Below, piece by piece: positions 7,841 to 60,785 of a stretch of 64,000 nucleotides of DNA. The notes under the pieces are model-generated. The model had not been told where the DNA came from and did not search any database. It worked only from the letters and a program-made list of their open reading frames with translations. The DNA is taken from assembly GCA_031272985.1 (NCBI GenBank), contig JAISSU010000008.1, positions 38,800 through 102,799 on the forward strand, written 5' to 3'. This DNA is from Lachnospiraceae bacterium. GTDB lineage: Bacteria > Bacillota > Clostridia > Lachnospirales > Lachnospiraceae. Each line of letters starts with the position of its first letter. Position 1 is the stretch's first letter. Both the position numbers and the translations under genes were made by a program.

Positions 7841-7857
7841 TGTGGATATGTGGATAA
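7841..7857. promoter_or_regulatory. DnaA boxes in the dnaA-dnaN intergenic region (second oriC half)
   Basis: TGTGGATAA at 7849-7857, whose reverse complement is the consensus TTATCCACA. An overlapping TGTGGATAT at 7841-7849 has one mismatch. The surrounding spacer 7773-7945 is AT-rich. Confidence 0.7.
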
Positions 7858-7945: not shown

Positions 7946-9349
7946 TTAAGCTGGAACGATTTTCTTTTTTATTATATTAATAGTATTTTGTAATTTTTCA
8001 TCTTTGCTTAATTGTTTGGTTATTTTATCAATTCCGTGTTTAACCGTTGAGTGATCCTTTCCGCCTACGGCAATTCCTATTGATTTTAAAGGTACTTCCG
8101 TTAATGTTCTTATTAAATACATTGCTATCTGCCTTGGAACAGCTATTTCAGCAGGTCTTTTTTCACTCTTTATATCCGCCACCGAGATATTATAATGATC
8201 AGCTACCGTATCCACTATTAAATCGGGAGTTATTTCTTTTTTATCTCCTGAGACGATAAAATCTTTTAAAGCTTCTACAGCAAGTGATATATCCATTTCT
8301 TCGTTAGTGTTATTTAATTTGTAAAGAGCTATTATTTTATTAAGTGAACCTTCTAATTCACGGATATTGGTCTTAATATGAGTGGCAATATAATGAAGAA
8401 CATCCTGAGGAATATGATATTTTTCAAGGTGGTCATTATCTATTTTCTTTTGAAGAATGGCCATTCTGGTCTCATAATCCGGAGCGGAAATATCTGCAAT
8501 GCAACCCTGCTCAAAGCGAGTTTTAAGTCTCGCTTCAAGTGTTTCGAGATCTTTGGGCGGTTTATCACTGGAAATTACTATTTGTTTTCCATATAAGTGT
8601 AAATGCTCAAATGTATGGAAAAACTCTTCCTGGGTACTTTCTTTTCCAATTATAAATTGAATATCATCTATTAATAATATGTCATTATCCCTATATTTTT
8701 TTCTGAATGCATTAAGTGAAGATTCTTCACGGTTTACTCTTTGATTTTGGTTTTTTATTGCGTCGATCAATTCGTTGGTAAATGTCTCACTGGTGATATA
8801 AAGGACCTTACTTTCAGGGTGATCCACGAGTATTTTATGGGCAATCGAATGCATCAGATGAGTTTTTCCCAGACCCACACCGCCATATAAAAACAGGGGA
8901 TTATATACCTTTCCGGGTGAATTAACGACGGCATTTGCAACACTGTATGCAAATTTATTATTTCCTCCAACTACAAAAGTTTCAAAAGTATATTTTGAAT
9001 TAAGTCCGATTTTATCAAAAATGCTTTTTGAACGTCTTTTATGGGTGGTTTCATGTAAAAGACTCTCGGGATTTTCCAGTCGTTCGTCGTCTTCGGATAA
9101 AAATAATATCTCGTACTCGACTCCCGTAATTTCACCGATACAGACCTTTAATGGAAGCATGTATTTTTTTTCAATATATTCCGCATTAGCATTTGAATTA
9201 ACAAGAATAATAACAGTTTCATCAATTACATCAAACACTTTCAGCGGAAGAATCCAGGTATTGAAAGAAACATTGGATAATTCATGCTCAGTGCGTAAAT
9301 AATCAATAATCTCCCCCCATCTTTCCTTTACGGTATGCAAACAAACCAC
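7946..9349 (-). CDS. dnaA: chromosomal replication initiator DnaA
   Basis: 467 aa. AAA+ Walker A (LFLYGGVGLGKTHL), a sensor region, and the C-terminal DNA-binding domain IV. Flanked by DnaA boxes on both sides. Confidence 0.95.
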   Translation of the reverse strand: MVCLHTVKERWGEIIDYLRTEHELSNVSFNTWILPLKVFDVIDETVIILVNSNANAEYIEKKYMLPLKVCIGEITGVEYEILFLSEDDERLENPESLLHETTHKRRSKSIFDKIGLNSKYTFETFVVGGNNKFAYSVANAVVNSPGKVYNPLFLYGGVGLGKTHLMHSIAHKILVDHPESKVLYITSETFTNELIDAIKNQNQRVNREESSLNAFRKKYRDNDILLIDDIQFIIGKESTQEEFFHTFEHLHLYGKQIVISSDKPPKDLETLEARLKTRFEQGCIADISAPDYETRMAILQKKIDNDHLEKYHIPQDVLHYIATHIKTNIRELEGSLNKIIALYKLNNTNEEMDISLAVEALKDFIVSGDKKEITPDLIVDTVADHYNISVADIKSEKRPAEIAVPRQIAMYLIRTLTEVPLKSIGIAVGGKDHSTVKHGIDKITKQLSKDEKLQNTINIIKKKIVPA

Positions 9350-9492: not shown

Positions 9493-9545
9493 TTGTCCAC
9501 AGGTTTTACACTAAAAATTGTAAAGTTATCCACAAAGTGTGGAAA
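9493..9545. promoter_or_regulatory. oriC DnaA-box cluster upstream of dnaA
   Basis: TTGTCCACA at 9493-9501 (one mismatch). TTATCCACA at 9526-9534 (perfect). Inverted TGTGGAAAA at 9537-9545. The flanks are AT-rich with A/T runs. Confidence 0.75.
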
Positions 9546-9594
9546 AAGTATACAAAAAAAGTGCAAATTTATTGGGAATTCAAGTATTTTTTTC

Positions 9595-17873: not shown

Positions 17874-17958
17874 CTCGTTCCCCTTATGTGAATAAGGCCA
17901 ATATGCTCAACTTCATTATACTATAACCAAAAAACACTGTAAACAAAAACCTAAACAA

Positions 17959-17974
17959 TGTTTCACGTGAAACA
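17959..17974. other. parS centromere-like site (copy 1)
   Basis: Exact 16-bp palindrome TGTTTCACGTGAAACA, the universal ParB-binding consensus. Confidence 0.85.
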
Positions 17975-18072
17975 TTAACCACAGAATTAATAAAATATAA
18001 TTGAAGTAATTAAAAATATAAGTATCAGCGAATATGTAACAAAAATTTCAGACAAAACAGCCTCATCATAAA

Positions 18073-18088
18073 TGTTTCACGTGAAACA
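18073..18088. other. parS centromere-like site (copy 2)
   Basis: Exact TGTTTCACGTGAAACA, with the palindrome extended by flanking AA/TT. Confidence 0.85.
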
Positions 18089-18201
18089 TAAGCGCAAAAA
18101 ATAAAAGTAAACCACTTTACTTTAAACGAAGCAAGAAGAGAAACCAGAGTTAGATATAGAAACACCCAACGTTGGAACAGTAGATACAGCTGTAGATTAG
18201 A

Positions 18202-18217
18202 TGTTTCACGTGAAACA
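18202..18217. other. parS centromere-like site (copy 3)
   Basis: Exact TGTTTCACGTGAAACA, about 110 nt upstream of parA. Confidence 0.85.
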
Positions 18218-18328
18218 TTTTGCGAATTGGTGGTATAAGATAAAATTGATATAGAAATCATAATAAAAAGATGATATACTGTTTCAGTATTCGGAAAGTC
18301 AGAAGATTTTTCGATCCGGGAGAATGAT

Positions 18329-19107: not shown

Positions 19108-20028
19108 ATGGCAGCAGTTAAGAAAGGACTCGGAAAAGGACTTGACAGTCTGATTCCGGACAGAGCATCTTCGATCAAGAAGGAAACACAAGCTGAATCG
19201 ACAAAGTCGGTAGCAGAAGGTATAGTCAACGAGCTTGATATTCACAGCGTAGAACCAAACCGAGATCAACCAAGAAAGCACTTTGATGAAGATCCTTTAC
19301 ATGAATTGGCAGATTCGATTAAGCAGCATGGTGTTCTTGAGCCATTATTAGTTCGTAAAAAGAAGGACTATTATGAAATTATCGCAGGAGAGCGCAGATG
19401 GAGAGCCGCAAAAATAGCTGGCTTAAAAAAAGTGCCTGTAATAGTTAAGGATTTTACAGACGAAGAGGCTTCCATAGTCGGATTGCTTGAGAATATTCAA
19501 CGAGAGGACTTAAATCCAATTGAAGAAGCTACCGCGTTTAAGACACTTCTCGAGGTTTATTCTCTGAAACAGGATGAAGTCGCAGAACGAGTGTCAAAAA
19601 GTCGTGTGGCTGTTACTAATTCTATGCGTCTTTTGAAGTTAAATCCGGCTGTACAGCAGATGGTAATCGATGAAATGATAAGCACAGGACATGCCAGAGC
19701 CCTTCTGGCATTAGACGATCACGAACAACAGCTTGCATTGGCAAACAGAATTTTTGATGAAAAGCTTAGTGTCAGAGAAACAGAGAGTTTAGTAAAGCAT
19801 TATAAAACCCCGAAAGATAGTAAAGAAAAGAAACAAAAGATTGAAATAGAACATATGTTTGTGTATTCGGATATGTCGGAAAAACTAAAAGAAGCACTCG
19901 GAACGAAAACTGCCGTCATACCTAAAAGCGAAGGTAAGGGAAAAATCGAAATTAATTATTACTCAGAGCAGGAATTGGAGAGAATATTCGATATCCTAAT
20001 GGGAAGTGCTAAAGGAGAGCAGGCATAA
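19108..20028 (+). CDS. spo0J: chromosome partitioning protein ParB/Spo0J
   Basis: 306 aa. ParB box GERRWRAA and an HTH. Lies directly downstream of soj. Confidence 0.92.
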   Translation: MAAVKKGLGKGLDSLIPDRASSIKKETQAESTKSVAEGIVNELDIHSVEPNRDQPRKHFDEDPLHELADSIKQHGVLEPLLVRKKKDYYEIIAGERRWRAAKIAGLKKVPVIVKDFTDEEASIVGLLENIQREDLNPIEEATAFKTLLEVYSLKQDEVAERVSKSRVAVTNSMRLLKLNPAVQQMVIDEMISTGHARALLALDDHEQQLALANRIFDEKLSVRETESLVKHYKTPKDSKEKKQKIEIEHMFVYSDMSEKLKEALGTKTAVIPKSEGKGKIEINYYSEQELERIFDILMGSAKGEQA

Positions 20029-20032
20029 TCTT

Positions 20033-20920
20033 ATGGAAAGTAATGCATTAGAGTTACTCGGCGTTGATCCTGCCATACTACTTTTGTTCATGTTTATTCT
20101 GATTGTGGTGTTGGGGATTGCGTGTTTGAGTTTAAATACAAAGATAAAGCGTATGAAGGTGCATTATGCGACTTTTATGCGGGGAAAAGACGGACGTTCA
20201 TTAGAAAAGGCGATGCTGGAGCGGTTTTCGGATATTGAGAAACTAATACGCTCTACAAGACAAAATAGAGCAGACATTAATGAAATCAGAAGAAAAATGG
20301 ACGAGGACTACCAAAAGGTAGGTATAGTAAAATATGACGCCTTCAATGAAATGGGCGGAAAACTTAGCTTTGCTCTGGCTATGTTGGACGGAAATAACAA
20401 CGGTTGGATAATTAACGCTATGCATAGCCGAGAAGGGTGCTACACCTACATTAAAGAGATTGTAAAGGGACAAAGTTATGTGGAGCTCTCTGAAGAGGAG
20501 ACGCAGGCACTCGATAAAGCGGTATTTAAGGAAGTTTATGAGCTAAGTGATCAGTTACAGCAAAGCAAGGCCGGTAAAAAAGGAAATACTAAAAGTGCAG
20601 ACCAAAGATCATCATATGAAGAAGCCGAAGACGAAGAACCTGTAGTTTATAAAGAAAAATATCAGACATTAGCGAAATCGGACACGGCTAAAATTGAGAT
20701 TGATGAAGATGCCTTAAGAGCTATCGAACGCGGAAAACGAATGGCCGCGGCTCAAAAGAGACTAAAACCCGGTCAAAGCCCCATATTATCATCAAAGAAT
20801 GAGATTGATGAAGATGAAGAAGCAGGTGATTATGACAATGGTTTTAACGAGTATAACGAAGCGGATTATGACGCAGACGAATATGAGGAAGATGGTGTTG
20901 TGCTCGTAGATATAGATTGA
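20033..20920 (+). CDS. DUF4446-family protein with an extended acidic C-terminal tail
   Basis: The track ORF starts at 20006. The start MESNALELLG at 20033 avoids the parB overlap. An N-terminal TM helix and a conserved DUF4446-like core. The last ~110 residues are D/E/N/Y-rich low complexity. Typical position after parB in Firmicutes. Confidence 0.6.
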   Translation: MESNALELLGVDPAILLLFMFILIVVLGIACLSLNTKIKRMKVHYATFMRGKDGRSLEKAMLERFSDIEKLIRSTRQNRADINEIRRKMDEDYQKVGIVKYDAFNEMGGKLSFALAMLDGNNNGWIINAMHSREGCYTYIKEIVKGQSYVELSEEETQALDKAVFKEVYELSDQLQQSKAGKKGNTKSADQRSSYEEAEDEEPVVYKEKYQTLAKSDTAKIEIDEDALRAIERGKRMAAAQKRLKPGQSPILSSKNEIDEDEEAGDYDNGFNEYNEADYDADEYEEDGVVLVDID

Positions 20921-20940: not shown

Positions 20941-21030
20941 GGGTGTCGGGGTTGTCCCCTGACGTATCTTCAGTAGTGTAGACGGGATTCACTCCCGTCG
21001 GAGCGAGGGGTGTCGGGGGTGTCCCCTGAC
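20941..21030. repeat. palindromic interspersed repeat (family copy A): two GTCGGGG..CCCCTGAC hairpins flanking a GACGGG..CCCGTC hairpin
   Basis: GTCGGGGTTGTCCCCTGAC at 20945-20963 and GTCGGGGGTGTCCCCTGAC at 21012-21030 flank AGTAGTGTAGACGGGATTCACTCCCGTCGGAGCGAGGGG. The same modules recur at 27262-27406, 44594-44690 and 31409-31431. Confidence 0.85.
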
Positions 21031-21050: not shown

Positions 21051-22340
21051 ATGTTAGATATTAAATTTGTGAGAAATAATCCCGATGCGGTGAAAGCAAA
21101 TATCGAAAAAAAATTTCAACATGAGAAGTTAGGTCTCGTTGATGAAGTATTGGCATTGGATATATTAAACCGTGAGATAAAGCAGGAGGTTGAAGCCCTG
21201 CGTGCCGATAAAAACCGCTATTCGAAAGAAATAGGCGGATTAATGGCAAAAGGTGATAAAGAGGGCGCCGAGAAAATAAAAGCCAAAGTAGAGGCCGACG
21301 CGGCGCGAATGTCAGTCTTGAATGCGCAGGAAAGGGAAGTTGAAGCAAAAATCAAAAAAATCATGATGACCATCCCTAATATCATTGATGACAGCGTGCC
21401 TATCGGGAGAGATGACAGCGAAAATGTCGAGGTTGAAAGATTCCTTGAGCCAAAAGTTCCCGACTTTGAGATTCCATATCATACGGATATTATGGAGAGC
21501 TTTGGTGGTATAGATTTAGACAGCGCGAGAAAGGTAGCCGGGAACGGATTCTATTATTTGATGGGCGATATCGCGAGGCTTCATTCCGCAGTTTTATCTT
21601 ATGCCAGAGATTTTATGATTGATCGTGGATTTACATACTGCGTGCCGCCTTTTATGATTAGAAGCGAAGTGGTAACAGGTGTTATGAGTTTTGCCGAAAT
21701 GGATGCGATGATGTATAAAATTGAAGGTGAGGATTTGTATCTCATTGGTACCAGCGAGCATTCCATGATTGGAAAGTTCATTGACACACTATTGAATGAG
21801 GATGACCTGCCCTATACAATGACCAGCTATTCGCCGTGTTTCCGTAAGGAAAAAGGCGCTCATGGTGTAGAAGAGCGAGGTGTTTACAGGATACATCAAT
21901 TTGAAAAGCAGGAGATGATCGTGGTTTGTAAACCGCAGGATAGCATGTACTGGTACGATCAGCTGTGGAAAAATACTGTAGATCTCTTTTGTTCAATGGA
22001 AATACCTGTGCGCACACTGGAGTGCTGCTCGGGAGATTTGGCGGATTTAAAGGTAAAATCAGTAGATGTCGAAGCATGGTCTCCGAGGCAGCAGAAATAT
22101 TTCGAAATCGGGAGCTGTTCGAACTTGGGAGATGCTCAGGCCAGAAGACTCGGCATAAGAGTAAGGGGAGAAGAGGGAAAGTACTTTGCGCATACTCTGA
22201 ATAATACTGTGGCTGCACCGCCCAGAATGCTGATTGCATTTTTGGAAAATCATTTGCAAGAGGATGGCACCGTCACCATTCCTGAGGTTTTGCAGCCTTA
22301 TATGGGGAAAACGCAAATTTTGACACCAAAGAAAGGCTAA
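21051..22340 (+). CDS. serS: seryl-tRNA synthetase
   Basis: 429 aa. N-terminal coiled-coil arm and class II aaRS motifs. No room for a T-box leader; the upstream gap is occupied by the repeat. Confidence 0.93.
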   Translation: MLDIKFVRNNPDAVKANIEKKFQHEKLGLVDEVLALDILNREIKQEVEALRADKNRYSKEIGGLMAKGDKEGAEKIKAKVEADAARMSVLNAQEREVEAKIKKIMMTIPNIIDDSVPIGRDDSENVEVERFLEPKVPDFEIPYHTDIMESFGGIDLDSARKVAGNGFYYLMGDIARLHSAVLSYARDFMIDRGFTYCVPPFMIRSEVVTGVMSFAEMDAMMYKIEGEDLYLIGTSEHSMIGKFIDTLLNEDDLPYTMTSYSPCFRKEKGAHGVEERGVYRIHQFEKQEMIVVCKPQDSMYWYDQLWKNTVDLFCSMEIPVRTLECCSGDLADLKVKSVDVEAWSPRQQKYFEIGSCSNLGDAQARRLGIRVRGEEGKYFAHTLNNTVAAPPRMLIAFLENHLQEDGTVTIPEVLQPYMGKTQILTPKKG

Positions 22341-27261: not shown

Positions 27262-27406
27262 GTCTGGGGTATCCCCTGACCTTTAGTAGCGTAGACCGGA
27301 TTCACTTCGGTCGGAGCGAGGGGTGTCGGGGGTATCCCCTGACCTTTAGTAGCGTAGACCGGATTCACTTCGGTCGGAGCGAGGGGTGTCGGGGGTATCC
27401 CCTGAC
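27262..27406. repeat. palindromic interspersed repeat (family copy B): tandem array of 2.3 units of about 63 bp
   Basis: Three GTC(G/T)GGGGTATCCCCTGAC hairpins at 27262, 27325 and 27388. They are separated by two identical 43-nt spacers (CTTTAGTAGCGTAGACCGGATTCACTTCGGTCGGAGCGAGGGG), each with its own GACCG..CGGTC hairpin. Confidence 0.9.
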
Positions 27407-27434: not shown

Positions 27435-28712
27435 ATGTCAAAAATTAAAGCAATACGTGCAAGGCAATTATTGGATTGTAAATGCAGACCCATGGTGGAG
27501 GCCGAGGTGGAGACCGAAAGCGGCGCAATAGGCACAGGCAGCGCCCCTACGGGGAGTTCCGTGGGCTCTCATGAGTCTTTTGTTCTGCGGGACAATGATA
27601 AAGGAGAGTATGGCGGATTAAGCGTTCATTTGGCTGTTAATAATGTTATTGAAAAGATTGCGCCTGCGCTAATAGGCATGGACGTAGAGGATCTGCGAAA
27701 AATAGATGAGAGAATGATAGAGCTTGATGGGAGTTTCGATAAGCACAATCTCGGAGGGAATGCGATTTACAGCGTTTCTATTGCCGCGCTTCGTGCGGCG
27801 GCAGCTGATAATAATATGCCCGTTTACCGTTATATTCTGGGCAGGGATCCACATACGGTTCCGGTACCGACGTTTAATGTAATTAACGGAGGAAAATATG
27901 GTGATCTCATTCAGCCTTTCAATGAATTTCTGATTGTCCCATGGAAGGCAAATAGTATTTATGAGGCTGTTGAAATGGGAGTTAAGGTATTTTCTGCGCT
28001 GGAGCAGGAGATACCTAAAGTTACTGGGATTTCACCGATGGTAGGGCGTTCTTATGGCTGGGTGGCACCTTCTGAAAATCCCGATGACATTTTGAATTTG
28101 CTTTCGCATACGGTAAAGGTCTGTGGATACGAGGGCAGGATAGCTTTCGCAATGGACTGCGCTTCGGGAGAGATGTACAATAAAGAGGATCATACCTATT
28201 ATTTGTTTGGTAATAGGGTATCGAGTGCGGAATTGGTGGATTTTACGGCGGGGCTTTCCCGGAAATATCCTTTATTTTTCATAGAGGATTTGCTTGATGA
28301 AGATGATTTTGACGGCTTTAAACTGGCGCATGAGAAGATCACAAATAGCCTTATTATAGGAGATGATTTAATCGCTTCCGACAGGGCACGACTTGAAAAG
28401 GCTCACGCGATGAACGCTGTGGATGGATTCATACTGAAACCGAACCAGATTGGAACCATCACCGAGGCAAAGGATACGCACGATTATGCCGTAAATGAAG
28501 GATTGCTTTCAATTACTTCAGGGCGCTCGGGCGGGGTTGTTGATGATATAGTTATGGATTTGGCCGTCGGATATGAGATTGGATTTATAAAGAATGGGGC
28601 CCCGCGTTCGGGGGAGAGAATATCAAAGCTTAATTTCCTCATGAGAGCCTGTGATTTGGCGCAAGGTTGCACGCTTGCCGATTTAAGTAAAGTAGCACGC
28701 ACAAACTCTTAA
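27435..28712 (+). CDS. enolase-superfamily paralog with a substituted catalytic acid/base pair
   Basis: 425 aa. Clear enolase fold: N-terminal ...AEVETESGA.G..APTG.S.G..E, the EF motif (NEFLIVP), metal ligands (AMDCASGE, FFIEDLLDED, IGDDL) and both Lys (LKPNQIGT, IKNGAP). The general-acid motif VGDEGGFAP is replaced by VGRSYGWVAP, and SHRSGETED is replaced by SGRSGGVVD. Confidence 0.7.
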   Translation: MSKIKAIRARQLLDCKCRPMVEAEVETESGAIGTGSAPTGSSVGSHESFVLRDNDKGEYGGLSVHLAVNNVIEKIAPALIGMDVEDLRKIDERMIELDGSFDKHNLGGNAIYSVSIAALRAAAADNNMPVYRYILGRDPHTVPVPTFNVINGGKYGDLIQPFNEFLIVPWKANSIYEAVEMGVKVFSALEQEIPKVTGISPMVGRSYGWVAPSENPDDILNLLSHTVKVCGYEGRIAFAMDCASGEMYNKEDHTYYLFGNRVSSAELVDFTAGLSRKYPLFFIEDLLDEDDFDGFKLAHEKITNSLIIGDDLIASDRARLEKAHAMNAVDGFILKPNQIGTITEAKDTHDYAVNEGLLSITSGRSGGVVDDIVMDLAVGYEIGFIKNGAPRSGERISKLNFLMRACDLAQGCTLADLSKVARTNS

Positions 28713-30168: not shown

Positions 30169-31389
30169 TCACCTGCGTCTTCCTTTTTGTTCTGCCGCTT
30201 TAAAATTATACAGTGGTTTAATTCTGGTCACAATTTCGGCAGTCGGTGCTATTTGTTCGATGATTTCTTCCATGGGCTTATAAGCCATAGGCGATTCGTC
30301 CAGCGTTTCCGGCAGTACGCAAGTGGAGTATATTCCGCTCATTTCGGCTTTGAATTCTTCCATTGTAAGCTCATTTCGGGCTTTATTGCGGCTCATGAGT
30401 CTTCCTGCGCCGTGCGGTGCGGAAAAATTCCAGTCGGGATTTCCTTTTCCCATGCAGATTAGGCTTCCGTCACGCATATTTATCGGAATCAGTAATTTTT
30501 CGCCTTCTTTTGCAGAGACGGAGCCTTTGCGCAGGATCATAGCCTGCGTGTCAATATAATTATGAATCGTCGTAAATTCGCCTGTTGATGCCAGTCGCAT
30601 CCCTATGAGAATAGTGTCAGCCATTGCCTTTCGGTTAAGCACCGCAAAGCGTTGTACAATCTTCATATCATGAATATAATCATCGAATAATGCGCCTTCG
30701 ACATAAGCTAAATCTTTCGGTACGGAAATTTCGGTTTCGGCTTTAAGACTTTTTATCGCCGTTTGGATTTCTTTATCGCGTCCTTCTTCTTTAAGCTGTG
30801 CAATAAAATCGTAAATTTGCACTTTTGAGCAGCCGCGCAGCGAGTTGTACCCTTCATTTTGATAGTAATCCGCCACCTCACAGCCCAAATGACGGCTCCC
30901 GGAGTGGACGACAATATAAATCTCCCCATTATCTCCGATATCAGCCTCGATAAAGTGATTTCCTCCGCCGAGAGTCCCGATGCTTTTATAGGCTCTATCT
31001 GCACTGATATGCTTTGCGCAACGTAATTGCGAGAGATCAATTTCCGATGCATATTTATGCGGTGTTTTGCGAATCTCAAAACCTGCCGGAATGTACTTAT
31101 GTATTACCTCATCTAATCGTTTAAAGTCAATGGATTTTACGTCCAATTGTATGGTTTCCATTCCGCATCCGATGTCCACCCCGACCATTCCAGGCACAAT
31201 TTTATCTGTAATGGTCATGGTCGTACCTATTGTGCAGCCTTTACCTGCGTGGACATCAGGCATTATTCGTATTTTACAATCTGAAAACTCCTCCTGATTG
31301 CAAACTTCCTTTATTTGCTGCGCCGCCGCGTCTTCTAATTGCGAAGTATAGCAAATGGCGCTGTTGAATTTTCCTTCTATCTTTACCAT
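30169..31389 (-). CDS. rtcB: RtcB-family RNA 3'-phosphate ligase
   Basis: 406 aa. Signature metal-binding motifs MPDVHAGKG and GVDIGCGM, with His-rich downstream segments (VHSGSRHLG, NHFIEA). Confidence 0.85.
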   Translation of the reverse strand: MVKIEGKFNSAICYTSQLEDAAAQQIKEVCNQEEFSDCKIRIMPDVHAGKGCTIGTTMTITDKIVPGMVGVDIGCGMETIQLDVKSIDFKRLDEVIHKYIPAGFEIRKTPHKYASEIDLSQLRCAKHISADRAYKSIGTLGGGNHFIEADIGDNGEIYIVVHSGSRHLGCEVADYYQNEGYNSLRGCSKVQIYDFIAQLKEEGRDKEIQTAIKSLKAETEISVPKDLAYVEGALFDDYIHDMKIVQRFAVLNRKAMADTILIGMRLASTGEFTTIHNYIDTQAMILRKGSVSAKEGEKLLIPINMRDGSLICMGKGNPDWNFSAPHGAGRLMSRNKARNELTMEEFKAEMSGIYSTCVLPETLDESPMAYKPMEEIIEQIAPTAEIVTRIKPLYNFKAAEQKGRRR

Positions 31390-31408: not shown

Positions 31409-31431
31409 GGGTCAGGGGATAACCCTGACCC
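31409..31431. repeat. isolated hairpin of the palindromic repeat family (copy D), in the SPFH-rtcB intercistronic spacer
   Basis: GGGTCAGGG-GATAA-CCCTGACCC: a perfect 9-bp stem, the reverse-orientation relative of GTCGGGGGTATCCCCTGAC. Lies between the SPFH stop (31440) and the rtcB start (31389). Confidence 0.75.
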
Positions 31432-44593: not shown

Positions 44594-44690
44594 TTTAGTA
44601 GTGTAGGGCGTCGGGGTGTCCCCTGACCTTTAGTAGCGGAGACCGGATTCATTTCGGTCGGAGCGTGGGGTGTCGGGGGTGTCCCCTGAC
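44594..44690. repeat. palindromic interspersed repeat (family copy C)
   Basis: CTTTAGTAGTGTAGGGCGTCGGGGTGTCCCCTGAC, then the CTTTAGTAGCGGAGACCGGATTCATTTCGGTCGGAGCGTGGGG spacer module, then GTCGGGGGTGTCCCCTGAC. Same modules as 27262-27406, with a few substitutions. Confidence 0.88.
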
Positions 44691-44713: not shown

Positions 44714-44935
44714 ATGCGTACTTTAAAAGAGGCAAAGCCCGGCGAAAGCGTTTCGGTTTTGAAGATCGATGGTGTTGGTCCTGTAAAACGCCGGATTATG
44801 GAAATGGGAATCACAAAAGGCGTCGAGGTATTCGTGCGCAAGGTCGCACCTTTAGGCGATCCTGTGGAGGTGACTGTGCGCGGTTACGAGCTTTCACTTC
44901 GTAAAGCGGACGCCGAGTTAATCGAAGTGAATTAG
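44714..44935 (+). CDS. feoA: ferrous iron transport protein A (copy 2)
   Basis: 73 aa FeoA-domain (...MEMGITKGVEVFVRKVAPLGDPVEV...). Confidence 0.85.
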   Translation: MRTLKEAKPGESVSVLKIDGVGPVKRRIMEMGITKGVEVFVRKVAPLGDPVEVTVRGYELSLRKADAELIEVN

Positions 44936-45058: not shown

Positions 45059-47335
45059 ATGTCTATCACAATTGCACTTGCCGGAAATCCGAACAGCGGC
45101 AAAACTACACTTTTTAACGCTTTGACAGGGTCCAATCAATTCGTTGGGAACTGGCCTGGCGTGACCGTTGAAAAAAAAGAAGGCAAACTTAAAAATCATA
45201 AGGATGTTACAATTACGGATTTGCCCGGTATTTATTCGCTTTCACCTTACACTTTAGAGGAAGTGGTGGCGAGAAATTATCTGATTGATGAAAGGCCTGA
45301 TGCCATTCTTAATATTATTGACGGAACGAACCTTGAGAGAAATCTCTTTCTTTCAACCCAGTTAACGGAGCTTGGAATCCCTGTGGTCGTAGCTGTTAAT
45401 ATGATGGATGTCGTAAAGAAAAACGGTGATAAGATAGACTCAAGCCGCCTCTCAAAAGAGCTCGGATGTAAGGTCGTTGAGATCTCAGCCCTAAAAGGAA
45501 CGGGCGTTATGGAAGCTGCTATCGCAGCTGTAGAGAGCGCTTCCGGTGAGAAAACCATTCCACAGCATAGCTTTTCGGGTGGCGTGGAGCACGCGCTGGC
45601 GCACATAGAGGAGGCTGTTTTGCATGATTTGCCTGAAGAACAGCAGAGATTTTTTGCGATTAAGCTTTTTGAGCGTGATGAAAAAATCATTGAAAAATTG
45701 GGCTTAAGTAAGGAAAAGCTGGACCATATTGAGGGTGATATTAAAGCTTGTGAAAAGGAGCTTGATGACGACAGCGAGAGCATTATCACCGCTGAGCGAT
45801 ATACATACATTGATTCAATCATTAAATTCTGCGTAAAAATAAAGAATAAAGGAAAGCTTTCGACCTCAGATAAAATCGATAAGGTCGTTACAAACAGGTG
45901 GCTTGCTCTGCCGATTTTCGCGATTGTTATGTTTATCGTTTATTATGTGTCGGTCAGTACGGTGGGGTCTGTCGCTACCGACTGGGCGAATGATGGCGTA
46001 TTCGGTGACGGCTGGCATCTCTTTGGGATAGGAACGGCGGCTTATGAGGGCGCAGTTGAAGAATATGAAAAGATTGCCGAAAGCGCAGATGAGGCGGCAT
46101 TAGCCGAAATCAGCGAGCCTGATCCTGCCGATTACGGGGTCTGGGTGCCCGGTGTGCCTGTAGTTTTGGAAAATCTTCTTGATAAGGCAAATTGTGCGGA
46201 CTGGCTTAAAGGCCTAATTCTTGACGGAATCGTTGCCGGAGTCGGAGCGGTTTTGGGCTTTGTGCCCCAAATGCTGATATTATTTATATTCCTTGCATTC
46301 TTGGAGGCCTGCGGATATATGGCGAGGATTGCCTTTATTATGGATAGAATTTTCAGAAGGTTCGGGCTTTCTGGGAAATCATTTATCCCGATTTTAATAG
46401 GAACAGGATGCGGAGTCCCGGGAATTATGGCTTCCAGAACCATCGAAAGTGATAGAGACAGGAAAATGACAATTATGACGACCACGTTTATCCCTTGCGG
46501 GGCAAAACTCCCGATTATTGCGCTTATTGCGGGAGCAATGTTCGGCGGCGCATGGTGGGTAGCGCCTTCCGCGTATTTTGTAGGGATGGCTGCCATAGTT
46601 TGCTCAGGTATTATTCTAAAGAAAACGAAGCTGTTTTCGGGCGATGTGGCGCCTTTTGTAATGGAACTTCCGGCATATCATATGCCCACGCTCGTCAATA
46701 TATTGCGCAGCATGTGGGAACGCGGTTGGTCATTCATTAAGAAAGCCGGGACGATTATCCTGCTTGCTACAATATTCGTCTGGTTTGCTTCGAGCTTTGG
46801 CTGGGCGGATGGACATTTCGGCATGGTAGATATGCAGGAAAGCGTGCTCGCAAAGCTGGGATCGGCCATTGCATGGATATTCGCGCCTTTGGGCTGGGGT
46901 GACTGGAAGGCTGCGGTCGCCGCGATTACGGGACTAATCGCAAAGGAAAACGTGGTAGGGACCTTTGGTATATTATACAATTTCGCCGAAGTATCGGAAG
47001 ACGGTGTGGAAATATGGAGCAGTTTAGCCGCTGCGTTTACGGGACTTGCAGCGTATTCATTCCTCGTATTTAATCTTCTTTGTGCCCCGTGCTTTGCGGC
47101 CATGGGAGCAATAAAGCGCGAAATGAACAATGCGAAATGGTTTTGGATTGCCATTGGGTACCAGTGCGGATTTGCTTATATAGTAGCACTTTGCATATAT
47201 CAGTTTGGAGTGCTTTTTACAGGCGGAAGTTTCGGTATCGGAGCGATTGTAGCGATATTGATAACAGTGGGATTCTTTTACCTGCTGTTTAGGCCGGACA
47301 GGCAGAAAGCCGCACTTAAATTAAAGAAAGCTTAA
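45059..47335 (+). CDS. feoB: ferrous iron transport protein B
   Basis: 758 aa. N-terminal G domain (GNPNSGKTTLFNALTG) and a polytopic membrane domain with conserved Gate motifs. Confidence 0.95.
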   Translation: MSITIALAGNPNSGKTTLFNALTGSNQFVGNWPGVTVEKKEGKLKNHKDVTITDLPGIYSLSPYTLEEVVARNYLIDERPDAILNIIDGTNLERNLFLSTQLTELGIPVVVAVNMMDVVKKNGDKIDSSRLSKELGCKVVEISALKGTGVMEAAIAAVESASGEKTIPQHSFSGGVEHALAHIEEAVLHDLPEEQQRFFAIKLFERDEKIIEKLGLSKEKLDHIEGDIKACEKELDDDSESIITAERYTYIDSIIKFCVKIKNKGKLSTSDKIDKVVTNRWLALPIFAIVMFIVYYVSVSTVGSVATDWANDGVFGDGWHLFGIGTAAYEGAVEEYEKIAESADEAALAEISEPDPADYGVWVPGVPVVLENLLDKANCADWLKGLILDGIVAGVGAVLGFVPQMLILFIFLAFLEACGYMARIAFIMDRIFRRFGLSGKSFIPILIGTGCGVPGIMASRTIESDRDRKMTIMTTTFIPCGAKLPIIALIAGAMFGGAWWVAPSAYFVGMAAIVCSGIILKKTKLFSGDVAPFVMELPAYHMPTLVNILRSMWERGWSFIKKAGTIILLATIFVWFASSFGWADGHFGMVDMQESVLAKLGSAIAWIFAPLGWGDWKAAVAAITGLIAKENVVGTFGILYNFAEVSEDGVEIWSSLAAAFTGLAAYSFLVFNLLCAPCFAAMGAIKREMNNAKWFWIAIGYQCGFAYIVALCIYQFGVLFTGGSFGIGAIVAILITVGFFYLLFRPDRQKAALKLKKA

Positions 47336-50150: not shown

Positions 50151-50219
50151 TTGTGTGGTCCCCCTCGGAAATACACTAAAAACCTGATTGAAAGTGCTAT
50201 ATTTAATTGTCAGCAGAAA

Positions 50220-50293
50220 CGTCCATAAGAGGATTCGAACCTCCGGCCTGTCGCTTAGGAGGCGACCGCTCTATCCTGCTGAGCTATATGGAC
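50220..50293 (-). tRNA. tRNA-Arg (anticodon CCT)
   Basis: 74-nt cloverleaf on the minus strand. 7-bp acceptor stem (GTCCATA/TATGGAC), D-arm GCTC..GAGC, anticodon stem GTCGC/GCGAC with loop CTCCTAA, T-arm GGAGG-TTCGAAT-CCTCT. CCA is not encoded. Confidence 0.9.
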
Positions 50294-50327
50294 GTACAAA
50301 ATGTACTTCTTTGGTACGTCCGTTACT

Positions 50328-56420: not shown

Positions 56421-57031
56421 CTAAAAATGGCCCACTCATGTTGCGCACTCTTCAGCAGTATTACTTTCGCAAAATTAATTCTACTGATTCTGTGGGCATT
56501 AGGGAAGGGGGTAACCTCTTTCCTTTTTTAGTATGACGGGCATGCCGTCAGTCTGTGGTGAAAGTCCACAAGGGGCGTAGTTGCCGACGAACCCCAAAGC
56601 GACTCCCAAGGCTTACACTGTGAAGTGTGGGCGAGAAGAAGGGATAGCGAAATCGTAGCCTGACGAACAGAAACCTGATATAAGGCGTACATGGCGGATA
56701 AGCTGGCTAAAGACAGCGAAGTCCAAAAGGCAACCGTAACCCATGTGCGTAAATCAGGCAGGTAGACGAGGAAAGACTGGGAGGCTTATCCCGTGAGGTC
56801 TCACAGGCGGTATCATTAGCCGTAGTAACAATGAACTGTGAGAAGTCAGCAGAAGCCGTAGTAGGCAGCGCTTTGAAATGGGCACTGCCAAAGGGCTGAA
56901 CAACGTAACTGTGTAATCAAATGTATGCTCCATGGAATACCTGACGGCAGGAAGGGCAAAACGTAAATGAGCAGACCCTGTGCCACATAGGGCGAATCCA
57001 TGAAACCGGAAAGGAGAAAGCACACAATGCA

Positions 57032-58255
57032 ATGTCAGAACTGTTGGAAAAGATACTGTACAAAGAGAACATGAATGCTGCCTACAAAAGAGTCTGCGCC
57101 AACAAAGGGGCGGGCGGAGTAGACGATGTGACGATTGAAGAACTGGGAGATTATATCAAAGAGAACTGGGCGAGTATCAGGGAGCAAATTAGGCACAGGG
57201 AATACAAACTCCAGCCAGTCAGGAGGGTAGAAATACCCAAGCCGGACGGAGGAGTGAGGGAATTGGGAATTCCTACGGTAATGGATAGAGTAATTCAGCA
57301 AGGCATCGTACAGGCAATAGGTCCTATGTGTGAGCCAATGTTTTCGGAATGGAGCTACGGCTTCAGACCGAACAGAAGCGGAGAAATGGCTATCAGGCAA
57401 TTACTTAAGTACCTGAACGAGGGATACGAGTGGATAGTGGATATAGACCTGGAGAAATTTTTCGATAACGTGCCGCAGGACAGGCTTATGAGCCTTGTCC
57501 ATGACATAATCAAAGACGGTGATACGGAATCGCTTATCCGCAGATACCTGAAAGCAGGAGCCATGACGCCACAGGGATACAGAGAAACAAGACTCGGCAC
57601 ACCGCAGGGAGGAAACCTGTCGCCGCTTTTGTCAAACATTATGTTAAATGAACTGGACAAAGAACTGGAAGCAAGAGGACTTCGGTTCACAATATATGCC
57701 GATGACTGTGTGATAGCAGTAAAAAGCGAAACAAGTGCTAAGAGGGTCATGCGGACGGTGACGGAATGGATACAGAGGAAACTGGGATTAAAGGTCAACG
57801 TGACGAAAACCCAAATCGCAAGACCGCTGAAGCTGAAATACCTCGGATTCGGGTTCTACAAAGACAATAAAACAAAAGAGTGGAAGTGCAGACCCCATCA
57901 GGAATCTGTGAAGAAACTCAAAGTCAGACTGAAAGAACTGACGTGTAGAAAAATGCCTGGAACAGTCACAAGCAAGATTGGGAAAATCAATCAGGTGACA
58001 AGAGGGTGGATAAACTATTACGCTCTCGGCGCTATGAGAACAGCAATGACAGAGATTGACGCACATCTAAGAACAAGACTTAGAATCATTATCTGGAAAC
58101 AGTGGAAAGTACCAGGAAAACGGCAATGGGGATTGCAGAAGTTAGGGGTCAGCAAAGACCTTGCCCGGCTCACAGCGTACTGTGGCGATCGTTATTACTG
58201 GGTTGTCACAAAAACATGTGTGGTCAGGGCAATCTCCAAAGCTGTATTTGCTTGA
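57032..58255 (+). CDS. group II intron reverse transcriptase/maturase (intron-encoded protein)
   Basis: 407 aa. RT domains 0-7 with the YADD active site (FTIYADDCVIAV) and an X/maturase domain (RGWINYY). No D/En domain. Confidence 0.92.
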   Translation: MSELLEKILYKENMNAAYKRVCANKGAGGVDDVTIEELGDYIKENWASIREQIRHREYKLQPVRRVEIPKPDGGVRELGIPTVMDRVIQQGIVQAIGPMCEPMFSEWSYGFRPNRSGEMAIRQLLKYLNEGYEWIVDIDLEKFFDNVPQDRLMSLVHDIIKDGDTESLIRRYLKAGAMTPQGYRETRLGTPQGGNLSPLLSNIMLNELDKELEARGLRFTIYADDCVIAVKSETSAKRVMRTVTEWIQRKLGLKVNVTKTQIARPLKLKYLGFGFYKDNKTKEWKCRPHQESVKKLKVRLKELTCRKMPGTVTSKIGKINQVTRGWINYYALGAMRTAMTEIDAHLRTRLRIIIWKQWKVPGKRQWGLQKLGVSKDLARLTAYCGDRYYWVVTKTCVVRAISKAVFA

Positions 58256-58449
58256 GTATTCCGGGTGTTTTTGAACCGCCAATCCGGTTGCATGATACCG
58301 TTGTTCCGGAATAACCGATACCAATATTCCGGAGGCAGAATACCAACATTCCGGCTAACGATACCGCTGTCCATGTAAAATAATAAGTTCTCCTTTATAC
58401 TGTATCTATACGCTTTATAGCGTAAATACAGTTGAAGGAGGTCGTCATT

Positions 58450-60003
58450 ATGACCAAATATCGTGAGATTATCCGGCTTGCCGGATTAAATCTCAGCCAG
58501 ACTAACATTGCGCTCAGTTGTAATGCATCCAAGACCACGGTCAACAAGGTTCTCAAAGCAGCAAGAGAAAAGAACATTGCGTGGCCCTTGAATCAGAAGC
58601 TGACAGATGATGTCTTGGCTAAAATGCTGTTTCCGGAGGCGGAACAAGCTGCCGTTGCCTCCAATAAGCGGATGCCGGATTATGACCACATCCGCAAGGA
58701 ACTTCTCCGTAACGGAGTTAACAAAAAGCTCCTGTGGACGGAATACCTGGAGGAATGCCGTCTCGCTGGCGATGAGCCGCTCATGTATTCCCAGTTCTGC
58801 TATTACATTCAGCAGGATGAGCAGAAGCGGCGTGCTACGATGCATATCAACCGCAAACCCGGAGAACAGGTCGAGGTCGACTGGGCAGGAGATCCGGCCC
58901 ATCTCACCGATCCGGATACCGGTGAAATCATCAACGCATATTTTTTCGTCGGGGTCATGACATACAGCCAGTATCCGTATGTCGAAGCGTTTGTTGATGA
59001 AAAACAGCCATCATGGATCGCCGCACATGTCCATATGTATGAATACTTTGGCGGCGTTGCAAAAATCCTCGTCCCAGATAACTGCCGTACTGCAGTTGAC
59101 CACAACAAAGGCTGGAAAGACCAGCGGATCAATGCAGTCTATCAGGGGATGGCAGAACATTATGGCACTGCCGTTATCCCCGCCCGCGTCCGGGCTCCGA
59201 AGGATAAGCCAAATGCTGAGGGCTACGTGGGTAACATCTCCACTTGGATTACAGCAGCTCTGCGCGATGAACCGTTCTTTTCCATCGGTGAACTTAACCG
59301 GGCCATCCACCAAAAACTGGAGGCCTTCAGCCGACGCCCTTTCCAGAAAAAAGAGGGCAGCCGGTATGAGATCTTCTGCAACGAAGAACTGCCACTGCTG
59401 ATGCCTTTACCCACTGCCCCGTATGAACTGGCGGAATGGAAACAAGCCACCGTCCAGTTCAATTATCACATATCTTGCGCTGGAATGCTATACTCAGTTC
59501 CGCATGAATACATAAAACGCAAGGTTGATGTACGGGTCACAGGTACGACGATTGAAATATTTTATAGTAATAACCGTATTGCCTCCCACCGCCGTCTCTA
59601 CGGTCGCAAGGGGCAGTACAGCACCATTACCGAGCATATGCCGGCCTCCCATCAGCAGTATCTGGAGTGGAACGGCGACCGTTTCCGCAAATGGGCGAAA
59701 CGGATTGGCACCGGCACATACCAGGTAGTGGATGGCATCCTTAACTCCAAACGTGTGGAACAACAGTCCTACAGGAGCTGTATGGGCCTTCTGAAGCTTG
59801 CCGACAAGTATTCTGTCGACCGTCTGGAGGCAGCCTGTACCAAGGCCCTCTCCTTCACCGCCACGCCCAGTTACAAGAGCATCAAGAACATCCTTGATAC
59901 CGGCAACGACAGGGCAGCACCATCGGACAAAGGGCTGGCACCTGATGCACACACACAGAACAGCCATGCGCTCACCAGAGGCGCTGATTACTATAGGAGG
60001 TAA
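58450..60003 (+). CDS. istA: IS21-family transposase IstA (N-terminal HTH plus DDE integrase core)
   Basis: Track ORF 58432..60003. The likely start is MTKYREIIRL. DDE core with ...VEVDWAGDP... and a C-terminal multimerisation region. Confidence 0.9.
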   Translation: MTKYREIIRLAGLNLSQTNIALSCNASKTTVNKVLKAAREKNIAWPLNQKLTDDVLAKMLFPEAEQAAVASNKRMPDYDHIRKELLRNGVNKKLLWTEYLEECRLAGDEPLMYSQFCYYIQQDEQKRRATMHINRKPGEQVEVDWAGDPAHLTDPDTGEIINAYFFVGVMTYSQYPYVEAFVDEKQPSWIAAHVHMYEYFGGVAKILVPDNCRTAVDHNKGWKDQRINAVYQGMAEHYGTAVIPARVRAPKDKPNAEGYVGNISTWITAALRDEPFFSIGELNRAIHQKLEAFSRRPFQKKEGSRYEIFCNEELPLLMPLPTAPYELAEWKQATVQFNYHISCAGMLYSVPHEYIKRKVDVRVTGTTIEIFYSNNRIASHRRLYGRKGQYSTITEHMPASHQQYLEWNGDRFRKWAKRIGTGTYQVVDGILNSKRVEQQSYRSCMGLLKLADKYSVDRLEAACTKALSFTATPSYKSIKNILDTGNDRAAPSDKGLAPDAHTQNSHALTRGADYYRR

Positions 60004-60008
60004 GGACG

Positions 60009-60785
60009 ATGACAATTCAAAGTACAATGGATAAACTGATCGAAATGCGCCAGACAGCCATGTCAGATGCGTTCCGTATACAGATTGATGACCCTAAAAT
60101 GAAAGAGGTTGCCTTCGAAGACCGCTTCGGGATGTTGGTCGATGTTGAGTACAGCAACCGGAAGCACAACAGCTTAAAGCGCCTGATCTGCAATGCCGGG
60201 TTTGACCAGCCGGAGGCTCATATTTCCGATATTAACTATACATCCGGCCGCAGGCTCAACCGGGTATTAATCGAAAGGCTCGCAACCTGTGAGTACATCA
60301 CAGAGCACAGGAACCTCTTTATCACAGGTGCCACGGACAGCGGCAAGACCTATCTGGCCTGCGCATTCGGCATGGAGGCGTGCAAGCAGCGTTTCAAGAC
60401 CAAATACATCCGTCTTCCTGACCTTCTCCTTGAACTGGAGATGGCACGAAGCGACGGCACTTACAAAAAAGTACAGGCCAAGTATGCGAATCCCGTTCTT
60501 CTCATCATAGATGAATGGCTCCTGCTGAAGCCGACAGAATCAGAACAGCATGACATTCTGGAACTGCTGCACAGGAGACGCCGGAATTCTTCCACGATCT
60601 TCTGCTCACAGTATGACTCAAACGGATGGTATGACCAGCTTGGCGGAGATGACAGTCCTCTTTCTGAGGCCATTCTCGATCGCATCAAGTATGATGCCTA
60701 TAAGATTAATATCATTCCAACAGACCCGGCAAACTGCCGGTCTATGCGGGAGGTATACGGATTAGATCCGGCATTAAGCGAGTAA
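60009..60785 (+). CDS. istB: IS21-family helper ATPase IstB
   Basis: 258 aa. Walker A TGATDSGKTYLACAFG, Walker B LLIIDEW. DnaC-like. Confidence 0.9.
   Translation: MTIQSTMDKLIEMRQTAMSDAFRIQIDDPKMKEVAFEDRFGMLVDVEYSNRKHNSLKRLICNAGFDQPEAHISDINYTSGRRLNRVLIERLATCEYITEHRNLFITGATDSGKTYLACAFGMEACKQRFKTKYIRLPDLLLELEMARSDGTYKKVQAKYANPVLLIIDEWLLLKPTESEQHDILELLHRRRRNSSTIFCSQYDSNGWYDQLGGDDSPLSEAILDRIKYDAYKINIIPTDPANCRSMREVYGLDPALSE

Follow-up and report, generated by a model that had tools for sequence, protein, structure and literature searches.

A modular palindromic repeat in short intercistronic spacers near the chromosome origin of a Lachnospiraceae bacterium

Interspersed palindromic repeats have been well studied in Proteobacteria and a few pathogens and, to our knowledge, have barely been described in the Lachnospiraceae, which are dominant in the gut. 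In one uncultured, gut-type member of this family, the spacer ahead of serS contains a two-hairpin sequence which, according to the original prediction, makes up one copy of a module found at three intergenic loci and is accompanied by a solo hairpin at 31409-31431. What this sequence is, how it came to lie inside operons and what it may do there are the questions addressed here for the whole 64-kb stretch of DNA that was analysed (the window).

Repeat units and their copies

A 63-bp modular repeat was found at 20945-21030 (site 1), 27262-27406 (site 2, 63 bp x 2.3) and 44594-44690 (site 3). Its modules follow the order hairpin A, linker, hairpin B, linker, hairpin A, the repeat unit reading A - CTTTAGTAGCGTA - B - GGAGCGAGGGGT - A, and each composite array is bounded by hairpin A at both ends. 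In hairpin A (GGGGT-GTCGGGGG-TAT-CCCCTGAC-C) the stem is 8 bp long, pair 4 is a G.T and the flanks are GGGGT and C; hairpin B has a 6-bp stem. The number of units differs by site, with 1 at site 1, 2.3 at site 2, about 1.3 at site 3 and a solo A at site 4, and the copies at the composite loci are all direct and on the + strand (Table 1).

When the 64-kb window was searched with the hairpin A pattern GTCGGGGNNNNCCCCTGAC, allowing up to two mismatches, matches were obtained at 20945, 21012, 27262, 27325, 27388, 44672 and 31411, where chance would give 0.01. The seventh A copy of the composite loci, at 44610-44627, has a loop one base shorter. The hairpin B pattern GACCGGATTCACTTCGGTC (up to three mismatches) matched at 20981, 27294, 27357 and 44641, again with a chance expectation of 0.01. 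Tandem Repeats Finder reported 27262-27406 with a period of 63, 2.3 copies and 98% matches, and repeat finding returned four 81-nt copies of 75-100% identity. Searches of the whole 64 kb with blastn-short and nhmmer gave no further copies, and the total stands at eight A and four B copies, every one intergenic. The family profile places the solo hairpin on the - strand (E = 0.03) rather than the + strand (E = 20); it has TATCCCCTGACC in common with hairpin A and lies 19 nt ahead of the rtcB start at 31389.

Pattern scans and Tandem Repeats Finder bore out the predicted two-hairpin module at three loci together with the solo hairpin, and pattern scans, nhmmer and blastn-short agreed with its description as a dispersed palindromic intergenic family with substitutions between copies. 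Two details needed amendment. The proposed consensus GTCGGGGGT(A/G)TCCCCTGAC fits four of the seven A copies at the composite loci, while the other three deviate, and site 3 does contain the two-hairpin module but begins with a partial linker (44594-44608) that is followed by an A without B.

Table 1. Coordinates of the repeat modules in the window
Feature	Position	Strand	Sequence and remarks
Site 1 hairpin A, copy 1	20945..20963	+	GTCGGGGTTGTCCCCTGAC
Site 1 linker 1	20964..20980	+	GTATCTTCAGTAGTGTA; 4 bases longer than at other sites
Site 1 hairpin B	20981..20999	+	GACGGGATTCACTCCCGTC; C-G to G-C flip and G.T to G-C relative to other copies
Site 1 linker 2	21000..21011	+	GGAGCGAGGGGT
Site 1 hairpin A, copy 2	21012..21030	+	ends 20 nt ahead of the serS ATG at 21051
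Site 2 array A-B-A-B-A	27262..27406	+	63-bp period x 2.3; ends 28 nt ahead of the enolase ATG at 27435
Site 2 hairpin A copies	27262-27280, 27325-27343, 27388-27406	+	
Site 2 hairpin B copies	27294-27312, 27357-27375	+	
Site 3 orphan linker-1 fragment	44594..44608	+	TTTAGTAGTGTAGGG; abuts the A copy, B missing
Site 3 hairpin A, copy 1	44610..44627	+	18-nt variant GTCGGGGTGTCCCCTGAC
Site 3 hairpin B	44641..44659	+	GACCGGATTCATTTCGGTC
Site 3 hairpin A, copy 2	44672..44690	+	ends 23 nt ahead of the second feoA ATG at 44714
Site 4 solo A-type hairpin	31409..31431	-	9-bp perfect stem; - strand reads GGGTCAGGGTTATCCCCTGACCC

Each locus folded far better than shuffled sequence. As RNA, the + strand of site 1 reached -46.7 kcal/mol (z -3.1), the - strand only -33.9 kcal/mol; as single-stranded DNA the site formed three separate hairpins, A, B and A, at -19.9 kcal/mol (z -3.2). 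At all three composite loci the sense strand was 13-23 kcal/mol more stable than the antisense strand, an advantage that is due to G.U/G.T pairs. Hairpin B of site 1 has three base differences, two of which flip one pair (C-G to G-C) while the third turns G.T into G-C, and through these compensatory changes the stem is preserved.

The origin region and the spacers that hold the repeats

The window is a replication-origin region, with gyrA, gyrB, recF, dnaN and dnaA on the - strand and rnpA, yidC, jag, mnmE, mnmG, rsmG, parA, parB, DUF4446 and serS on the + strand. DnaA-box clusters at 7841-7857 and 9493-9546 flank dnaA (7946-9349) and include exact TTATCCACA boxes at 7849-7857 (-) and 9526-9534 (+), and the GC skew changes sign near 8 kb. 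The clusters and the skew change together indicate that the window contains the chromosomal origin. Upstream of parA (18329), three copies of the parS-type palindrome (A/T)ATGTTTCACGTGAAACAT, 114 and 129 bp apart, occupy 17955-18218. A lone tRNA-Arg(CCT) is found on the - strand at 50219-50294, between a DUF4230 gene and an uncharacterised gene.

All copies of the repeat lie 11-35 kb to the right of oriC, and the palindromes are perfect or near-perfect. Both features would suit sites that are bound by proteins at the DNA level and help to organise the chromosome near its origin, with a nucleoid-associated protein, gyrase or condensin loading as the partner, comparable to the pairing of BIME-2 with gyrase and of BIME-1 with IHF. 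We regard such a role as very improbable. Proximity to oriC is a sampling effect, because the window itself is the origin region, and the true parS sites are separate, at 17955-18218. No result points to a protein partner, and neither the strand asymmetry of the G.T pairs nor the direct orientation of the copies would be expected if a double-stranded palindrome were bound.

The gene neighbours given in the original prediction were all as claimed in ORF calls and Pfam scans: site 1 lies between DUF4446 and serS, site 2 between a 2-hydroxyacid dehydrogenase gene and the enolase gene, site 3 between feoA and feoA-feoB, and site 4 between the SPFH gene and rtcB. In two relatives, Suipraeoptans and one other, the DUF4446-serS spacer is A-rich, free of hairpins and 35 nt or 44 nt long, versus 130 nt here; both share the synteny parA-parB-DUF4446-serS-DUF3881. 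The site 1 module takes up 86 of the 130 nt, which accounts for the difference in length, and since the orthologous spacer is only 35-44 nt in the relatives, the module is an insertion. The feoA-feoA spacer is 155 nt long here, versus 19 nt in a related feoA-feoA-feoB operon. The spacers that received the copies are intercistronic, very short and part of housekeeping operons near the chromosome origin, and no target-site duplication is visible at the copies. In an independent Logan short-read assembly (SRR14710912), one contig starts in the last A of site 1 and ends in the first unit of site 2; contig breaks inside repeat copies are the expected behaviour of an assembler at true repeats. An assembly artefact was rejected, since the Logan assembly has the same junctions and the flanking genes show synteny with relatives.

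Several genes beside the repeats have features of their own. SerS is 100% identical to MDR1800567.1, with the next homologues (Suipraeoptans, Mediterraneibacter) at 83%, and some SerS proteins in the databases (P0001, P0003-P0005; 474-605 aa) contain exact internal duplications of 40-180 residues that are probably assembly artefacts. The DUF4446 protein (20006-20920) is 304 aa long here versus 176-179 aa in relatives, and its extra C-terminal part contains acidic direct repeats (GAGATTGATGAAGATG at 20691 and 20796). The closest homologues of FeoB (45059-47335), at 81-82%, come from Oscillospiraceae/Clostridiales MAGs and Treponema isolates (R6D11, R8-4-B8), not from the SerS relatives, which suggests horizontal exchange of the feo operon or a habitat shared with the organisms that carry these homologues.

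At all four sites the flanking genes are co-directional and the repeat is in sense orientation to them, the solo copy on the - strand included, and the last hairpin lies 19-28 nt ahead of the next start codon. No sigma-70-like promoter was found in the spacers of sites 1-3; a promoter-like site was present upstream of the first feoA only. No intrinsic terminator (a GC-rich stem with a T-run on the transcribed strand) was found at sites 1-3 either, and a terminator was rejected since the T-run is absent there; at site 4 the sole terminator-like match was weak and on the strand antisense to the genes. The predicted intra-operonic or 5'-proximal placement agrees with these results. As no promoter or terminator was seen in the three composite spacers, the modules are most likely co-transcribed within polycistronic mRNAs. 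A riboswitch or leader was rejected, given unrelated downstream genes, a variable unit number and no Rfam match.

A transcribed stem-loop at a constant position might be a host-selected, cis-acting RNA element that stabilises or processes polycistronic mRNA and tunes translation downstream, its mobility being irrelevant or long past. REP in malE-malF and 5' stem-loops in Firmicutes are precedents for transcript stabilisation or tuning. Sense orientation and the position ahead of the ribosome-binding site, each seen at 4/4 sites, favour a role at the RNA level, although with four sites only the basis is thin. The much more stable fold of the sense strand, the compensatory changes in hairpin B and the lack of a U-tract, which leads us to expect read-through, are consistent with the same idea. 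However, the downstream genes (serS, enolase, feoA and rtcB) are functionally unrelated, the unit number varies freely by site and relatives do with spacers of 19-44 nt. In spacers so short, nearly any tolerated insertion is bound to lie just ahead of the ribosome-binding site. Related hairpins are moreover antisense to local genes in a phage contig and in a high-GC organism, and the G.T wobble is no argument for RNA because it is equally conserved in plasmid oriT hairpins, which presumably act as DNA. We therefore treat a host-selected RNA element as possible but unlikely.

Relation to known repeat families

REPs carry a GTAG/GTGG head, and the units of BIMEs alternate in orientation. The repeats in the window resemble REP, BIME and REPIN sequences as short, GC-rich imperfect palindromes that are extragenic and often inside operons, and they resemble REP and BIME further in their mosaic or tandem arrangement, defined linkers and co-transcription, and in not necessarily being terminators. 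Hairpin B is preceded by GTAG in three of its four copies and by GGAG at site 3; hairpin A is preceded by GGGGT. Unlike the hosts of REP and BIME, the host here is a Firmicute, and the likeness in sequence is limited to GTAG(A/G)CCGGAT. The mosaic and the conserved linkers of a BIME are present, but all units have the same orientation. The original description as 'REP/BIME-like' therefore holds for the kind of sequence, dispersed extragenic palindromes, and does not hold for membership, since only direct copies occur. REPINs are inverted REP doublets (PMC5581495). A REPIN was rejected, all copies being direct with no inverted doublets among them.

No Y1/RAYT or IS200-like transposase gene was found in the 64-kb window by Pfam scans or in the annotations. 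Mobile elements in the window are limited to a group II intron and an IS21, which lie at 56.6-60.8 kb. The RNA domains of the intron lie at 56614-56896 and its reverse transcriptase/maturase ORF at 57032-58255; the IS21 follows directly after the maturase ORF (istA 58432-60003, istB 60009-60785), and its insertion point may be within the 3' part of the intron or adjacent to it.

The BOX elements of Streptococcus pneumoniae are modular intergenic repeats with an internal module that is variable in number. The window family is similar in its strong secondary structure, its transcription with neighbouring genes and the lack of a transposase within the element. BOX is described as having other sequences and module sizes and distinct terminal modules (boxA and boxC), whereas the same hairpin A bounds every unit here.

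That the repeats belong to no named family was borne out for Rfam. A scan at the gathering thresholds of all 4227 families returned only the group II intron and the tRNA, and the best match below threshold was RF02937 (Clostridiales-2), with 15.4 and 13.4 bits versus a gathering score of 58.6. This model gave no match at site 3, and its internal part was unaligned. RF02937 has a GGGG/CCCC hairpin prefixed by GGGGGUG and, ~35 nt later, GUCGAAGGGA, and the window has a GGGGUG-hairpin followed by GUCGGAGCGAGG. Membership in Rfam, RF02937 included, was rejected with scores this far below the gathering threshold. A CRISPR array was also rejected, as the 44-nt stretches that separate the A copies are not unique but recur within the array at 98% identity.

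We conclude that the modules probably represent a new lineage-specific, non-coding modular interspersed repeat family of the REP/BIME/BOX kind, known from four loci in 64 kb, although our confidence in this assignment is modest. The family would have spread through an HUH-type nuclease, RAYT-like or relaxase-like and encoded elsewhere, that recognises the hairpins in single-stranded DNA, and identical A copies could let the arrays grow and shrink, by slippage or unequal recombination between them. After insertion an element would be co-transcribed and would fold, as RNA, into very stable stem-loops that lie 19-28 nt in front of the following start codon. There they might serve as exonuclease barriers or processing sites and so shift the relative expression of neighbouring cistrons. 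Two observations weigh against parts of this scheme. The 64 kb hold no transposase, RAYT or relaxase gene for the spread of the family, and the sense orientation at 4/4 sites and the constant position ahead of the ribosome-binding site may reflect a host function under selection and not selfish spread.

The complete A-B-A module was absent from 185,579 species-representative genomes in an exact-pattern scan, a set that does not include the source genome; the scan gave 32 matches, of which about 20 are chance occurrences in high-GC DNA. It was also absent from JGI metagenomes searched with the linker and half of A (again without the source genome), where nearly all of 73 matches are due to chance, and from the IMG/VR scans. 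With the whole array as query, blastn against PLSDB gave two short hairpin matches only. Translations of the two open frames of the array found nothing among 5.8 billion proteins. Literature searches by sequence strings returned primers only, and a search for 'Clostridiales-2' returned nothing relevant. Approximately 5.5 kb of further sequence of the source genome, reached by exact-protein look-ups, contained no copy. With the full module absent from all collections searched, there is no comparative support for its mobility.

A few sequences with partial likeness were encountered. The sole related item from the JGI metagenomes is a high-GC repeat family with the layout B'-GGAGCG-GGGGT-A', a likeness partly forced by the search pattern. 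This dispersed intergenic repeat (L064, L065 1795 and 11378, L088, L071), from an organism of about 70% GC in one metagenome, is composed of a B-like hairpin, GGAGCG...GGGGGGT and a 12-bp version of hairpin A; one copy is antisense between a glutamine synthetase gene and a thioesterase gene. One phage contig from IMG/VR has A and then a B-like hairpin, in antisense to the genes of the phage. The contig (L110 10560-11090) has a gap of ~500 nt without a convincing gene inside a head-tail gene module, and this gap is hairpin-rich, with A and, 12 nt on, GACCGGCACTGCCGGTC, all antisense to the phage genes. A second IMG/VR match, without the context of hairpin A or B, looks like chance and was rejected. 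A Verrucomicrobia contig has an A-type hairpin together with a B-like hairpin. An Anaerolineae MAG (L028 1292-1410) has two A-type hairpins separated by a 54-nt linker that contains CGTAGTGAGACC (compare GCGTAGACC in the window), immediately 3' of an IS30-like transposase gene.

Hairpin A and plasmid transfer origins

Hairpin A matches the distal short inverted repeat of the IncI1/R64-type oriT and of the ColE1 bom, and the feature that marks this oriT repeat (GGGGT-GTCGGGGN...NCCCTGAC-C) is present in it. IncI1- and IncM-type oriT consist of two inverted-repeat pairs plus a nic site (PMC8125031). The IncI1/R64-type oriT, which occurs beside nikA-nikB and was found in 3751 PLSDB plasmids, reads GGGGT-GTCGGGGC-GAA-GCCCTGAC-C, after which come a large inverted repeat and then ACATCCTG|TCCCG. 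In a 25-nt comparison, hairpin A of the window differs from the IncI1 hairpin only by a flip of pair 8 from G-C to C-G and in the loop. The same hairpin is contained in the ColE1/pBR322 bom segment, whose sequence a 100% match confirmed and which was found in 4832 PLSDB plasmids. In ColE1-like variants, either the 8-bp stem is perfect again or compensatory changes maintain a hairpin. The R64/IncI1 and ColE1 bom hairpins are almost the same in sequence as hairpin A and share with it an 8-bp stem in which pair 4 is G.T, a loop of 3 nt and the flanks GGGGT (5') and C (3').

In the genome scan, the subset of matches that share the flanks GGGGT and C adjoin relaxase genes. The neighbours are a PF03432 relaxase and a NikA-like gene in Prevotella MAGs and in Roseomonas, Mob_Pre in Sinirhodobacter, and MobA/MobL on a small Acinetobacter plasmid, where the hairpin lies just 5' of an inverted repeat and TAAGTGCGCCCT; the relaxase Pfam families beside the hairpin in these four genera are PF03432, PF03389 and PF01076. 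In E. coli plasmids of ~91 kb the hairpin adjoins genes annotated mobA and relaxase, and in a 2.9-kb MobV plasmid of Klebsiella the hairpin and its flanks are identical to A of the window at 25/25 positions. Pair counts over 14 hairpin sources found 97% of cells paired, with pair 8 covarying (a G-C/C-G switch in 5/14) and pair 4 a G.T in 12/14. In the oriT cases in which a nic-type motif was read (IncI1, E. coli mobA, Prevotella, Hallella and Acinetobacter), the hairpin is 5' of the large inverted repeat, and the strand that reads G.T also carries this motif.

The hairpin is missing from Acinetobacter MobV plasmids related to the Klebsiella plasmid, their homology beginning directly after it, which shows that it is not indispensable to every oriT. 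The oriT-type hairpin (L034 1414-1441, compared with L116, Acinetobacter MobV plasmids) thus lies exactly where homology between two related rep-oriT-mobV plasmids starts, and it may mark a module junction.

Tandem pairs of the hairpin also occur in the plasmid oriT setting (Prevotella, Roseomonas, Anaerolineae). On plasmids, however, the hairpin is single or double, 5' of a large inverted repeat and nic and beside relaxase genes, whereas in the window hairpin A occupies four chromosomal sites and alternates with hairpin B. None of the nic motifs ATCCTG|T, ACATCTTG|T, CTGG|CTTA and AAGTGCG|CCCT, which were taken from the IncI1 oriT, from PMC8125031 and from ColE1 and RSF1010, was found on the strand that carries A up to 150 nt from a module. 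No large inverted repeat was found at the modules, and Pfam scans of the 64-kb window found no gene of a relaxase family. A functional oriT was rejected on these grounds. The possibility, raised at the outset, that the copies are pieces of one known element applies in part: hairpin A is the same hairpin as the distal one of known oriT, but the modules are not copies of an oriT.

The modules could still be miniature elements derived from the distal part of an R64/ColE1-type oriT and be relaxase substrates to this day. Strand transfer and recombination catalysed by a relaxase would then account for their dispersal and for their amplification in tandem. Such elements could act as chromosomal termination or recombination sites in conjugation. 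Furuya and Komano are said, in work from 2000, to have assigned two repeat sets of the R64 oriT to termination of transfer. The identity to the hairpin at the Klebsiella MobV relaxase oriT, the near-identity to the IncI1 hairpin, the recurrence of the hairpin in the ColE1 bom and beside relaxase genes of three Pfam families, and the pairing, covariation and conserved G.T among the 14 sources all point towards such a derivation. The linker after A also shows a weak likeness to what follows the ColE1 hairpin (P = 0.009 to 0.09 by copy in shuffles). Recombination between repeated copies of oriT is catalysed by some relaxases, NikB of R64 among them (PMC5714925). Against this, the likeness spans about 25 nt and the weak resemblance of the linker, the modules are without a nic motif on the A strand, a large inverted repeat or a neighbouring relaxase, at least one oriT family (the Acinetobacter MobV plasmids) does without the hairpin, and no Firmicutes oriT with this hairpin was found. 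Alternatively, a GC-rich hairpin may have arisen by convergence, or plasmids may have captured a free-standing hairpin module. We consider descent from an oriT doubtful, less probable than the RNA element, and it is equally doubtful that hairpin A is a portable single-stranded-DNA conjugation signal, equivalent to the 'termination' inverted repeat of an R64/ColE1-type oriT, of which a Firmicute has multiplied copies in its chromosome in the manner of REP. What stands is that hairpin A, with its flanks and G.T pair, is alike with oriT distal short inverted repeats across distant phyla.

For a new interspersed repeat family, which remains our preferred reading, the consequences are in part practical, as such repeats break short-read assemblies, as they did here, and can alter operon expression. 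If the likeness to oriT is one of convergence, the modules are an ordinary new repeat family. If instead common descent or a shared recognising enzyme lies behind it, two fields usually kept apart, REP-like repeats and the cis-acting sites of conjugation, would be joined, and such a link would provide a testable candidate for how repeats move in Firmicutes. Should hairpin A prove to be an amplified conjugation signal, relaxase-dependent miniature elements would be a counterpart of the REP-RAYT system built on the HUH nuclease of conjugation, and the hairpin A repeats might influence the transfer or recombination of chromosomal DNA.
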